Assembly (NCBI GenBank): GCA_048938855.1
Contig: JBHLLT010000003.1
Location: 96,001-160,000, forward strand
Reading direction: 5' to 3'
From: Promethearchaeota archaeon
GTDB taxonomy: Archaea; Asgardarchaeota; Lokiarchaeia; Sigyniarchaeales; SOKP01
DNA: 64,000 bases
The first letter of the stretch is position 1; each line of letters begins with the position of its first letter. The notes beneath the pieces were generated by a model. The model was not told where the DNA came from and did no database searches. It saw nothing but the letters and a program-made list of their open reading frames with translations. Both the position numbers and the translations under genes were made by a program. Below, one piece after another: positions 41,621 to 52,961 of this stretch.

Positions 41621-42877
41621 TTGACTGATAAATTAAACCTTAACAATACTTTCAAATTATATCAGGAAGCCTTAGAATTAATTCCGGGTGCAATTTTAGG
41701 GATAAGACGACCATATAATTTTGTTGAAGGAGAATATCCTATATTCTTTGAATCTGCTAAAGGTGGAAAAGTAATTGATGTTGATGGTAATGAATATATT
41801 GATATGTTATGTGCCTATGGGCCAATTATTATTGGACACAGAGAAGAAGAAATCGATAATGCAGTTATTGAGCAAATCCGTAATAAAGGATTTTGTATGT
41901 CCCTTACTCAACAAATACAAAATAAGCTAGCAAAGAAATTAAAGGATTTAATACCTTGCTGTGAAAAGATGGTATTAATGAAAATGGGTACTGATGCAAC
42001 TACTGCCGCGATCAGAGTAGCTAGAGCTTATACAAAAAAAATGAAGATTCTTAGTTGTGGATATCATGGATGGTATGATGCTTTCAGTGAGGTACATGGA
42101 ATTGAAGCGGGAATACCTAAGAAATTATTTGAAGATTTTTATGAATTTAATTTTAATAATCTAGAGGAAATTGAGAATTTATTTAAAGAGAACAAAGATG
42201 AAGTAGCAGCTATAATAATCAACCCAATACATACTCCAGGAGGTCGAGAAGTTGAAACGCCTGAGAATGGATACCTTGATGGACTTCGTGAATTAGCAGA
42301 TGAAAATAACGCGTTATTGATTTATGATGAGATAAGGACAGGTTTTAGAGTGGATATGGGTGGAGCACAAAAATTATTTGGAGTTCTTCCTGATTTAGCT
42401 GCATTTGGAAAAGCTATGGGAAATGGTTATCCTATAAGTACCCTTGTAGGTAAAGCAGAATTTATGGATGTTTTAGTTGAAAAAGTCTTTCTTAGCTCAA
42501 CTTTCTTCCCTAATAGTCTGGCTCAGGTTGCTTCTCTAAAAACAATTGAATTTCTTGAACGTGAGCATGTTTTAGAAAATATTCAGAAAAAAGGTGACTT
42601 TTTCGCAAAACAAGTCAAAGATCATATAAATGATACTAGAATTCCATGCAATTTTACAGGTGGTCCATGGATGCCTTATATTACATTCACACCCGATCCC
42701 AATTATCTATACAGAAAAATTCGAGAAGAATTTTATAAACAATTGATTCGTCGAAAAGTTTTTCTTCAACCATATCATCATGGATATATCGCATACCGGC
42801 ATTCCAGTGAAGATTTAGATTATGCTTCAGAAATGATTTATGAATCGTTAAAAGAATGCAAAAAAATAACTAACTAA
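41621..42877 (+). CDS. kat: 3-aminobutyryl-CoA aminotransferase (class III PLP aminotransferase)
   Basis: Class III motifs (DVDGNEYID, GYHGW, YDEIRTGFR, FGKAMGNG). N-terminal PG...GIRRPYNFVEGEYP matches my recollection of the Kat subfamily; located upstream of kce, kdd and kam. Confidence 0.75.
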   Translation: MTDKLNLNNTFKLYQEALELIPGAILGIRRPYNFVEGEYPIFFESAKGGKVIDVDGNEYIDMLCAYGPIIIGHREEEIDNAVIEQIRNKGFCMSLTQQIQNKLAKKLKDLIPCCEKMVLMKMGTDATTAAIRVARAYTKKMKILSCGYHGWYDAFSEVHGIEAGIPKKLFEDFYEFNFNNLEEIENLFKENKDEVAAIIINPIHTPGGREVETPENGYLDGLRELADENNALLIYDEIRTGFRVDMGGAQKLFGVLPDLAAFGKAMGNGYPISTLVGKAEFMDVLVEKVFLSSTFFPNSLAQVASLKTIEFLEREHVLENIQKKGDFFAKQVKDHINDTRIPCNFTGGPWMPYITFTPDPNYLYRKIREEFYKQLIRRKVFLQPYHHGYIAYRHSSEDLDYASEMIYESLKECKKITN

Positions 42878-44036
42878 TTTTTTTCTCTAACCTTAATTGT
42901 ATTATTTTCTTGTCAGTATACCACCATACAACACCACAAGAGATGCAAATAGTCCAATTCAAAATTAATAAGGAAAAATTTATAAAAAGATTCTCAGTGG
43001 CGACCCCTATAATATTGACAATTGTTATCCCCCCTATTGATCCCCATATAGTCTCATGAATTATATAGGAGATAGTAAAATAAAGGTCTTGAACAAGAAA
43101 TATATGAAAAGTAGATCGACCAATTATTTTAAATGTTTTTGCTACCTTTTGGTTAGCAGTTTCTGGAATAAAATTCAGAAAGAGCAGGAATATGAAAGCA
43201 GAATATAGAAATGTTAAGGAATTGTAATCTCCCCTTAAAATACTTGCACCATTAATAGCTAAGCGAAAATTAAAGAAATCCCATGCTATCATGTACAGAG
43301 TGCTGACAGGGAAAAGTATCCATACAAAAAGATTCTTTTTAGTAAATATGCCTTGATATTTAGAAAGCCACATACCCATACCTAAAGCTGATACATACAA
43401 TAAGATTATATTTCGAAAATTAGCCTCCAGTAGAATTTCTTCAGGACTAGTTATATTTCCAACAACAAAAAACACTAATAAATGCATTAAAAACTCGATA
43501 ATAAAGCATAAAATCAGTGTAATTTTTGGCCATTTAGAAAAACTATAATATAATAAGGGCATTATAATTATCGATTGAAAAAGCACAGGTATAAACCAAT
43601 TTCCAGGACCTTGTAAGAGAGATTTTTGGAAGATAATATATTCCAAGAACCAATTTTCATTAAATATGCTAGGAAAAGAAAGACCATACAGAATAAACCC
43701 AATTAAAGTTCCAATAATATATAGAATAATATAAGGATAAACATAACGCCAAAATTTTTTTTTAAAATAACGCCAGGAATATAATTCTTTTAATTTTAGA
43801 TGACTTTCTTTAGAAAAAGACTTACCCATATTAAATCCCATAATTATTAGAAAAACTGGTATAGCAATTCTTTCCCATAATTGAAAGCCTAAACCATTTA
43901 AATTTGAATATACAAGAGAATGATCAATAATTACTAATCCAATCATTAAGGCTTTTAATAAGTCTATCTGAAAGAGTTTATCCTCTTTTAACGTTACTAT
44001 ATTTGATTCCGTTGCCTCTATACTGTTTCCGTTCAA
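42870..44036 (-). CDS. Membrane acyltransferase family 3
   Basis: QIDLLKALMIGLVIIDH, AIPVFLIIMG, WFIP, IGRSTFHIFLVQ; about 10 TM. Confidence 0.82.
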   Translation of the reverse strand: MNGNSIEATESNIVTLKEDKLFQIDLLKALMIGLVIIDHSLVYSNLNGLGFQLWERIAIPVFLIIMGFNMGKSFSKESHLKLKELYSWRYFKKKFWRYVYPYIILYIIGTLIGFILYGLSFPSIFNENWFLEYIIFQKSLLQGPGNWFIPVLFQSIIIMPLLYYSFSKWPKITLILCFIIEFLMHLLVFFVVGNITSPEEILLEANFRNIILLYVSALGMGMWLSKYQGIFTKKNLFVWILFPVSTLYMIAWDFFNFRLAINGASILRGDYNSLTFLYSAFIFLLFLNFIPETANQKVAKTFKIIGRSTFHIFLVQDLYFTISYIIHETIWGSIGGITIVNIIGVATENLFINFSLLILNWTICISCGVVWWYTDKKIIQLRLEKKIS

Positions 44037-44198
44037 ATTTTATTAACTATTTCAAAAATTACTTACTAATTTATAGGAGAAGGTGCGTATTAAAATAAAC
44101 CATATTTTTATGTATAATTCCGAATAGGGTAGGATTAATAGACTATCACCCACTTAATAAGAGATTAAGTTTAAAATCATAGAAATATTGAAGATGGT

Positions 44199-52171: not shown

Positions 52172-52172
52172 T

Positions 52173-52961
52173 ATGGGAGGAGGCCTTTATTCTGCTGAAA
52201 ATAAAAATTTTGATAAAAATTTAGATTTAACAAGAATTAAACCATATGGAGATACAATGAATGATGGAAAAGTGCAAATTAGTTTCACTCTTCCAATTGA
52301 TCATGATGAAAGAGCAATCGAAGCGGTTAAAAAACTCGTAGAGAAAATGGGCATCAAAGATCCTTTAGTTGCTTATCATACCTCATTAGATAAAGGATTT
52401 ACCTATTTTGTCGTATATGGAGAGTTAATTCATACCATTGATTATACAAAAATTCTTGTTGAAACTGTAGATGTAGATATTATGCCTAAAGAGCAGATTA
52501 ATGCCTATATTAAAGATAAAATAGGGCGTAAGCTTGTAATTTTAGGTGCATCTACGGGAGAGGATAGTCATACTGTTGGAATTGATGCAATTATTAATAT
52601 GAAAGGCTTTGCAGGACACTATGGTCTTGAACATTATGATATGATTGAAGCCTTTAACTTAGGAAGCCAAGTGTCAAATGAAGAGTTTGTTAAAAAGGCG
52701 ATAGAACTTAATGCGGACGTTTTACTTGTCTCACAAACTGTTACACAAAAAAATATTCATATAAAAAATCTTACTCAGTTAGTTGACCTTTTAGAAGCAG
52801 AGGGAATAAGAGACAAGATTATTTTAATTTGTGGTGGTGCGAGAATAAGTAATGAATTGGCTAAAGAATTAGGATATGATGCCGGATTTGGCCCTGGAAC
52901 CTTTGCTGAAAATGTTGCTACTTACTTAGTTAAAGAGATTGTTAATCGAAAGAAACTGTAA
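52173..52961 (+). CDS. kamE: Lysine 5,6-aminomutase beta subunit (AdoCbl-binding)
   Basis: KPYGDTMNDGKVQISFTLP, DSHTVG (DxHxxG), NMKGFAG (PLP lysine), LVSQTVTQ, GYDAGFGPG. Confidence 0.96.
   Translation: MGGGLYSAENKNFDKNLDLTRIKPYGDTMNDGKVQISFTLPIDHDERAIEAVKKLVEKMGIKDPLVAYHTSLDKGFTYFVVYGELIHTIDYTKILVETVDVDIMPKEQINAYIKDKIGRKLVILGASTGEDSHTVGIDAIINMKGFAGHYGLEHYDMIEAFNLGSQVSNEEFVKKAIELNADVLLVSQTVTQKNIHIKNLTQLVDLLEAEGIRDKIILICGGARISNELAKELGYDAGFGPGTFAENVATYLVKEIVNRKKL

Follow-up and report, generated by a model that had tools for sequence, protein, structure and literature searches.

A 64,000-nucleotide stretch of a Promethearchaeota archaeon genome (Lokiarchaeia, Sigyniarchaeales, SOKP01; assembly GCA_048938855.1, contig JBHLLT010000003.1, positions 96,001 to 160,000 of the forward strand; hereafter the window) carries the genes kat, kce, kdd, kamA, kamB, kamD and kamE. 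Together they very probably form a working lysine fermentation gene set, in the variant that uses the 3-aminobutyryl-coenzyme A (CoA) aminotransferase Kat, and one that is resident in an Asgard archaeon of the Lokiarchaeia type. Asgard archaea are studied as the nearest relatives that eukaryotes are known to have, and the syntrophic breakdown of amino acids is central to models of their lifestyle. The window adds detail to this picture and does not change it: in Loki-type archaea lysine fermentation appears as a trait of bacterial ancestry that is old and spread across the order, and most species use the Kat route, which by its stoichiometry would give extra reducing power, fitting partner-dependent growth.

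Gene identities were judged by the curated equivalog cut-offs of NCBIfam, and six out of six proteins, Kce, Kdd, KamA, KamB, KamD and KamE, score above them (Table 1). Comparison with solved structures of characterised bacterial enzymes gave strong matches, all over the full length: 682.9 bits for KamA against the lysine 2,3-aminomutase of Clostridium subterminale (2A5H), 876 and 400.5 bits for KamD and KamE against 8T0V_A and 8T0V_C, 368 bits for Kdd against 7DL3, and 260.9 bits for Kce against the Cloacimonas enzyme (2Y7D), which shares the IHLH and GFEDN stretches. The radical S-adenosylmethionine (SAM) motif CxxxCxxC of KamA is intact (CSMYCRHC, residue 124), as is the B12-binding DxHxxG motif of KamE (DSHTVG, residue 131). 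Alignment to 2A5H, 2Y7D and 8T0V also shows conservation of the stretches that we take to hold the pyridoxal phosphate (PLP)-binding lysine, the zinc ligands and the lysine-binding residues. The initial annotation of this DNA had called all seven genes on the plus strand with catalytic motifs intact; the calls hold, six by the cut-offs and Kat by its place in a tree. It had also raised ornithine as a substrate that the enzymes might prefer. This appears improbable from the profile scores, as the KamD and KamE models are passed and the ornithine-mutase OraE model NF040743, whose cut-off is 800 bits, gives 170 (KamD) and 154. No OraE-type fused mutase subunit above the equivalog cut-off (NF040743) was found in the cluster.

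The identity of the aminotransferase required a separate treatment. HemL models score best with the window Kat, yet below every cut-off, and among solved structures HemL enzymes are again the closest; the characterised 3-aminobutyryl-CoA aminotransferase is likewise HemL-like (Perret 2011, PMC3149608). A search of 1.84 billion representatives returned one full-length match at 497 bits and 53% identity, which carries the JGI name 3-aminobutanoyl-CoA transaminase, and the next full-length match drops to 317 bits and 42% identity. In a tree rooted on distant relatives, with starred support values given by the Shimodaira–Hasegawa-like approximate likelihood ratio test (SH-aLRT), the Kat family is split from other class III aminotransferases at 99% SH-aLRT, and Asgard Kat falls in a 99% clade with homologs from Cloacimonadaceae and anaerobic-digester Bacteroidetes, the lineages from which Kat has been assayed (Perret 2011, PMC3149608). 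The window Kat is 61–62% identical to these homologs, which are 66–68% identical to each other, matching the "about 65%" given for the assayed enzymes (Perret 2011, PMC3149608). Furthermore, a genome-wide search found no Kal in the window's genome, and Kal is likewise absent from five bacterial genomes bearing Kat. Because of its clade placement and its genomic context we accept the putative assignment as Kat.

An enzyme of this HemL-like type could act on another substrate, with 3-aminobutyryl-CoA being handled by an unrecognised enzyme. A 60%-identical Kat homolog is indeed found in a bacterium without lysine fermentation genes (Perret 2011, PMC3149608), and many deltaproteobacterial Kat-like loci are also without adjoining lysine genes. 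In Asgard archaea, however, kat is nearly always located about 6–12 kb or less from kamD, and it fills the exact slot held by kal in sister species. The two are, moreover, almost mutually exclusive: the 85 KamD-positive genomes of the order comprise 54 with Kat only, 23 with Kal only, 1 with both and 7, mostly incomplete bins, with neither. We therefore consider a different substrate very improbable and retain the assignment as Kat.

The host is a Loki-type Asgard archaeon, in line with the initial annotation. Its genome has a gene for VPS28, a protein that 14 of 14 control genomes lack, and genes for three actins, of which the best scores 441 bits. The best Kat homologs are found in metagenome-assembled genomes labelled Promethearchaeota, Lokiarchaeota or other Asgard names, and an eleven-gene block is shared with a named Promethearchaeota contig at 56–87% identity, with at least 70% for all but three of the genes.

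A misassembled bacterial fragment, betrayed by a break in composition, had been named as the finding that would undo the reading, and the strong similarity of the genes to bacterial ones, together with a contamination estimate of 7% and a few contigs of 65% guanine plus cytosine (GC) in the 3.95-Mb, 97% complete bin, speaks for bacterial DNA misassembled or misbinned into an archaeal genome. The cluster is, however, located mid-contig (the window spans 96–160 kb of 194.8 kb) in DNA of uniform GC content, about 0.31. Its tetranucleotide profile equals that of the genome (r = 0.992, against 0.991 ± 0.004 for random 11.3-kb chunks), whereas the bacterial versions of the cluster that were compared have a GC content of 0.42–0.60 and a correlation of at most 0.83. 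Same-genus genomes, including the closed genome G189, retain the cluster with the same flanking genes on both sides, and 85 genomes of the order have KamD. Misassembly is thus excluded for practical purposes, and the probability left to misplaced bacterial DNA is negligible.

Based on the gene identities and the published biochemistry, a route from lysine to acetoacetyl-CoA can be proposed, in which enzyme activities and end products are predicted. KamA would convert lysine to beta-lysine, and KamDE, dependent on adenosylcobalamin and PLP, would convert this to 3,5-diaminohexanoate, from which Kdd would form 3-keto-5-aminohexanoate by oxidative deamination. Kce would then use acetyl-CoA to give acetoacetate and 3-aminobutyryl-CoA, and Kat would transfer the amino group of the latter to 2-oxoglutarate, yielding acetoacetyl-CoA and glutamate. 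The finishing reactions may be carried out by candidates encoded elsewhere in the genome: a glutamate dehydrogenase (271 bits) and 12 thiolase-like matches, all unlinked to the cluster, a CoA-transferase pair on contig C60 (53.8/28.8 bits in the genome search, 52.9/35.4 bits with the open reading frames (ORFs)) and an adenosyltransferase of the CobA type. No PduO-type adenosyltransferase was found in the genome.

Contig C60 has, within 8 kb of each other (55984–63659, L165), genes for CoA-transferase A/B, an archaeal thiolase, the OB-fold partner of this thiolase and the CobA-type adenosyltransferase. They may assist the lysine pathway in its downstream reactions and in cofactor supply. The conserved divergent neighbours were also considered as a source of the missing step from acetoacetyl-CoA to crotonyl-CoA and were dropped: three are generic short-chain dehydrogenases, a 135-aa ORF is a small four-helix membrane protein, and a 526-aa ORF is a soluble coiled-coil protein without family match. 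The 526-aa gene is found beside kat or kal in eight f1-type loci, f1 being the window's family (six f1 genomes and two Asgard contigs, 65–89% identity), and was not seen in the loci of G149 (genus g2) and G163 (g7).

By stoichiometry, the Kat route with both acetoacetyl-CoA cleaved would amount to lysine + 4 H2O -> 3 acetate + 2 NH3 + 4 [H], and would yield two acetyl-CoA for ATP synthesis, whereas the Kal route would be redox-balanced, ending in butyrate and acetate. Since two reducing equivalents would be released per lysine, the Kat route would need a hydrogen or formate sink. The cultured Asgard archaeon Promethearchaeum syntrophicum MK-D1 grows syntrophically, a mode of growth that an H2-releasing Kat route would suit.

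KamA could alternatively make beta-lysine for osmolyte or other biosynthesis, as in the synthesis of N-epsilon-acetyl-beta-lysine by AblA and AblB of methanogens, where the lysine 2,3-aminomutase belongs to the same family (TIGR03820). The model that KamA passes is in fact named lys_2_3_AblA, and an acyltransferase gene is present within the cluster. Unlike the methanogen system, however, the window's 97% complete genome gave no match for AblB (TIGR03827), and the surroundings of KamA are those of a catabolic cluster: kamA is co-directional and tightly spaced with kamB, kamD and kamE, and archaeal as well as bacterial loci keep it together with kdd, kce and kat. The acyltransferase, for its part, is a membrane protein of the Acyl_transf_3 family, encoded on the opposite strand and variably present among close relatives. 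A biosynthetic role is very improbable, and fermentation remains the preferred reading.

The initial annotation could not verify whether the pathway had been reported before for the lineage; lysine degradation is already on record for Asgard archaea, in its Kal version. Supplementary Table 4 of the MK-D1 study opens with "Lysine degradation" and lists kamA, kamD, kamE, kdd, kce, kal and CoA-transferases with their expression levels (Imachi 2020, PMC7015854), and databases already name some of the cluster's proteins automatically. MK-D1 belongs to the same phylum as the window's genome and, judging by gene order, to the same order. The two share kamA, kamD, kamE, kdd and kce, and a hypothetical gene of MK-D1 corresponds to kamB. 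This gene and a MutS2-like one lie between kamD and kamA in the MK-D1 gene table (Imachi 2020, PMC7015854), and the closed sister-family genome G143 has exactly the kam gene order of MK-D1. MK-D1 differs in having kal, a MutS2-like gene at the position of KamC and a kce-kal pair that about ten genes separate from the kam genes, whereas the window has kat, no KamC and a compact arrangement to which genes for a methyltransferase, a dehydrogenase and an acyltransferase have been added. Literature searches found no main-text report of a Kat-type cluster or aminomutase in Asgard archaea.

The closest characterised counterpart of the Kat variant is bacterial. In "Candidatus Cloacimonas acidaminovorans" and a digester Bacteroidetes, kat is found at the kal locus and kal is missing from the genome (Perret 2011, PMC3149608), as in the window's genome, and the Kat-type order kat-kce-kdd-kamA-kamB-...-kamD-kamE is found in Bacteroidetes ADurb.Bin139 and Bacteroidales UBA1374 (L074, L077). 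Identities between the window and these systems are 61–62% for Kat, 62–67% for the other enzymes and 27–29% for KamB. The window differs from them in its archaeal host, the lack of KamC and the inserted genes. The classical cluster of Fusobacterium nucleatum and Clostridium sticklandii has the steps of KamA, KamDE, Kdd and Kce, the first four, in common with the window, as well as the cofactors that they need; it ends via Kal, butyryl-CoA dehydrogenase and butyrate-acetoacetate CoA-transferase, with butyrate and acetate as products (Perret 2011, PMC3149608), whereas the window would end via Kat.

The distribution of KamD was surveyed in 400 genomes sampled from the phylum, and that of KamC and the cluster's methyltransferase in 154 genomes of the window's order. 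KamD was found in 85 of the 400, all from this one order, with 74 of 134 genomes of the window's family and 10 of 14 of the sister family positive, and in none of about 250 genomes from more than 30 other families. The order kat-kce-kdd-kamA-kamB-(gap)-kamD-kamE recurs unchanged in clusters of Bacteroidales and Riflebacteria, whose proteins are 59–70% identical to those of the window, except KamB at 27–29%; in Spirochaetales and Bacillota the same genes are found with kat at the opposite end. One cluster from the Bacillota-phylum sample (G573; kdd-kamA-kamB-(gap)-kamD-kamE) is 68–73% identical, with KamB at 45%, which makes it as near to the window as the sister archaeal family. KamD was found in 2 of 201 genomes of the Bacteroidota sample. 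A Bacteroidota genome (G785, L167) was also observed to carry two tandem kdd copies, 62% and 57% identical to the window Kdd.

In an unrooted KamD tree of 70 rows the Asgard sequences are nested inside a bacterial clade with 96% support, and all 36 of them fall on one side of a branch whose own support is just 14%. The restricted distribution, the shared gene order, the nesting in the tree and the full compositional amelioration support an old transfer from bacteria, shared across one order. The horizontal acquisition proposed in the initial annotation is thereby upheld as to bacterial ancestry; it was no recent import, but is ancient and order-wide, in DNA that now has the composition of the host. 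As the tree is unrooted and samples few bacterial phyla, the direction of transfer is deduced from the distribution, and with Fusobacteriota and other phyla with Kal-type clusters outside the sample the trees cannot name a donor. A single entry is compatible with the data, which go no further than that since the separating branch has 14% support. The cluster probably entered an ancestor of the order from bacteria as a block; its later history would be one of inheritance and reshuffling, with kat and kal replacing each other repeatedly in a single place.

Parts of the cluster show a mosaic pattern. The 3' end of kamB and the 5' end of kamD (50300–50900), as well as the region of the PHP gene downstream of kamE (52700–53732), resemble genus g12 more than the genus of the window, to which the remaining cluster is closest. 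This mosaic explains why the window KamD groups with g12 in the tree (100*) and suggests recombination between genera.

The alternation of kat and kal extends to the level of the genus. In Kal-type loci of the window's own genus, kal is located 35 bp from kce, in the slot of kat and beside the same conserved neighbour. Kal-type and Kat-type genomes are interleaved on the KamD tree, where at least eight changes are needed, and four of these interleavings are backed by starred branches. The closed 6.04-Mb sister-family genome G138 (L053/L052) is the only one found with kal and kat both near the kam genes, and may represent an intermediate state of the swap.

In the Kat-type pathway the mutase reactivase pair, KamB and the MutS-like KamC, is expected between kamA and kamD, and in the window its KamB half alone is present: kamB and kamD are separated by 58 bp, with no gene in between. 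No KamC above the cut-off was found in the window's genome, the best match being a 973-aa MutS-like ORF on another contig (211 bits against 300). KamC scores above the cut-off in 10 of the 154 genomes of the order, eight from the sister family and two from family f1 (G151, G164), and directly adjoins kamD in 9 of the 10, that is, in all with both genes on the same contig. It is absent in 53 of 53 genomes of the window's genus, in which kamB and kamD are adjacent. In the P-loop of KamB (residues ~22–30, …GLAKNVSKTT…) the large genera g1 and g12, both without KamC, have SKT in place of GKT; GKT is found in bacteria, the sister family and some other genomes lacking KamC. We found no relevant literature on the KamB/KamC reactivase.

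The methyltransferase between kce and kdd is a regular member of the operon in family f1. Single-copy orthologs are found in 51 of the 154 genomes of the order, all from this family, and are located between kce and kdd in 7 of 7 f1 loci inspected; the others are on the same contig as kat or kamD wherever the assembly permits a check. No ortholog was found in family f3 or in the bacterial clusters. A role as replacement for KamC was considered and rejected, as the methyltransferase is present in both f1 genomes with KamC (G151, G164) and missing from many genomes without KamC.

Several points weigh against a working lysine fermentation pathway of the Kat type and bacterial origin. Kat is without a curated family model and just 61–62% identical to the nearest relatives of the assayed enzymes, and the CoA-transferase matches are weak and on another contig. 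With the KamC partner missing and a P-loop glycine of KamB changed to serine, upkeep of the B12 enzyme may be different or poorer. With 14% support for Asgard monophyly and few bacterial phyla sampled, the trees name neither a donor nor a number of transfers.

The reactivase genes also bear on whether the cluster might be decaying or only partly functional in the family. This would be consistent with the absence of KamC from the whole genus sample and most of the family, with the SKT of the KamB P-loop and with an operon split by three inserted genes. On the other hand, every pathway ORF is full length and scores like its bacterial counterparts, KamB without KamC is kept across dozens of species with its other motifs intact, no complete-length KamD match contains a stop codon, and a CobA-type adenosyltransferase is present in the genome. 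We regard decay as improbable and favour a functional cluster.

What the window adds is modest: the swap of kat and kal at one spot, the loss of KamC with KamB kept, and the methyltransferase as an operon member. The first two pose small testable questions for enzymologists of B12 enzymes. A bolder reading, which we think doubtful, would make kat and kal a non-homologous switch at one slot, thrown at least eight times and even within a genus, that toggles lysine breakdown between an H2-releasing, acetate-only, syntrophy-dependent mode and a self-balanced one yielding butyrate; most of the family would in addition run the B12 mutase without KamC, using a KamB with altered P-loop and a recruited SAM-dependent methyltransferase, hinting at an undescribed form of cofactor upkeep.

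Table 1. Genes of the lysine fermentation cluster and other features of the window (positions are those of the window; aa, amino acids)
Gene or product	Position	Strand	Basis
kat, 3-aminobutyryl-CoA aminotransferase (putative)	41621..42877	+	HemL-like class III aminotransferase, 418 aa, TTG start; Aminotran_3 198.6 bits
Membrane acyltransferase Acyl_transf_3	42870..44036	-	PF01757 72.8 bits; 388 aa, ~8 hydrophobic segments
kce	44199..45023	+	NF052387 430.9 bits (cut-off 382)
SAM-dependent methyltransferase	45054..45764	+	Pfam Methyltransf_25/11
kdd, L-erythro-3,5-diaminohexanoate dehydrogenase	45797..46837	+	NF052381 274.5 bits (cut-off 200)
D-2-hydroxyacid dehydrogenase	46848..47855	-	2-Hacid_dh_C 138.6 bits
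kamA, lysine 2,3-aminomutase (radical SAM, PLP)	48203..49447	+	TIGR03820 602.6 bits (cut-off 525.4)
kamB, lysine 5,6-aminomutase reactivase subunit	49504..50538	+	NF052386 393.3 bits (cut-off 210)
kamD	50597..52171	+	NF052384 921.7 bits (cut-off 600)
kamE	52173..52961	+	NF052385 393.9 bits (cut-off 280)
PHP-domain metallohydrolase, 9 bp 3' of kamE	52971..53732	+	Pfam PHP 43.3 bits; NF038032 CehA/McbA 99.6 bits
Aldehyde:ferredoxin oxidoreductase	3295..5229	-	
Ferredoxin, pyridine-nucleotide-disulfide oxidoreductase and HdrD-like CCG fusion	7327..10089	-	920 aa
Aldehyde:ferredoxin oxidoreductase	30322..32202	+	
Methyltransferase-cognate corrinoid protein beside MtaA-like methyltransferase	34595..36384	-	MtgC/MtbC-like, 195 bits, below cut-off
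Soluble, strongly coiled-coil protein	39594..41174	+	526 aa, no family match
EamA-type transporter fused to Lrp/AsnC ligand-binding (RAM) domain	54011..55330	-	
Ornithine-oxo-acid transaminase	60215..61477	+	TIGR01885 529 bits, above cut-off

The initial annotation described the operon as broken up by inserted genes, and the three interrupting genes on which this rested were confirmed with the strands it had given (Table 1). Judging by the spacing, the genes form three co-directional units: kat alone, kce-methyltransferase-kdd, and kamA-kamB-kamD-kamE with the PHP gene. A PHP gene 3' of kamE is also found in loci of genus g12, and not in the same-genus loci checked. The acyltransferase is found beside kat in three same-genus genomes (G178, G181, G202), is absent in two others (G177, G189), and is probably outside the pathway. 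The 2-hydroxyacid dehydrogenase is located at the same spot in the same-genus Kat-type loci of G177 and G189 (74–75% identity) and was absent from two same-genus Kal-type loci and from the loci of other genera, family f3 and bacteria that were checked.

The gene for the EamA-RAM fusion adjoins kamE in G177 and G189 (64–76% identity), and two other genera of the family have a 45%-identical homolog at a distance of up to about 7 kb from kamE. The fusion could be an amino-acid-gated transporter serving the lysine pathway. A few kb upstream of the lysine cluster, the corrinoid protein and the MtaA-like methyltransferase constitute a second system dependent on B12, and the ornithine-oxo-acid transaminase gene is kept near the cluster in same-genus genomes. 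The two aldehyde:ferredoxin oxidoreductases and the 920-aa fusion are typical of the electron handling of an anaerobic fermenter.

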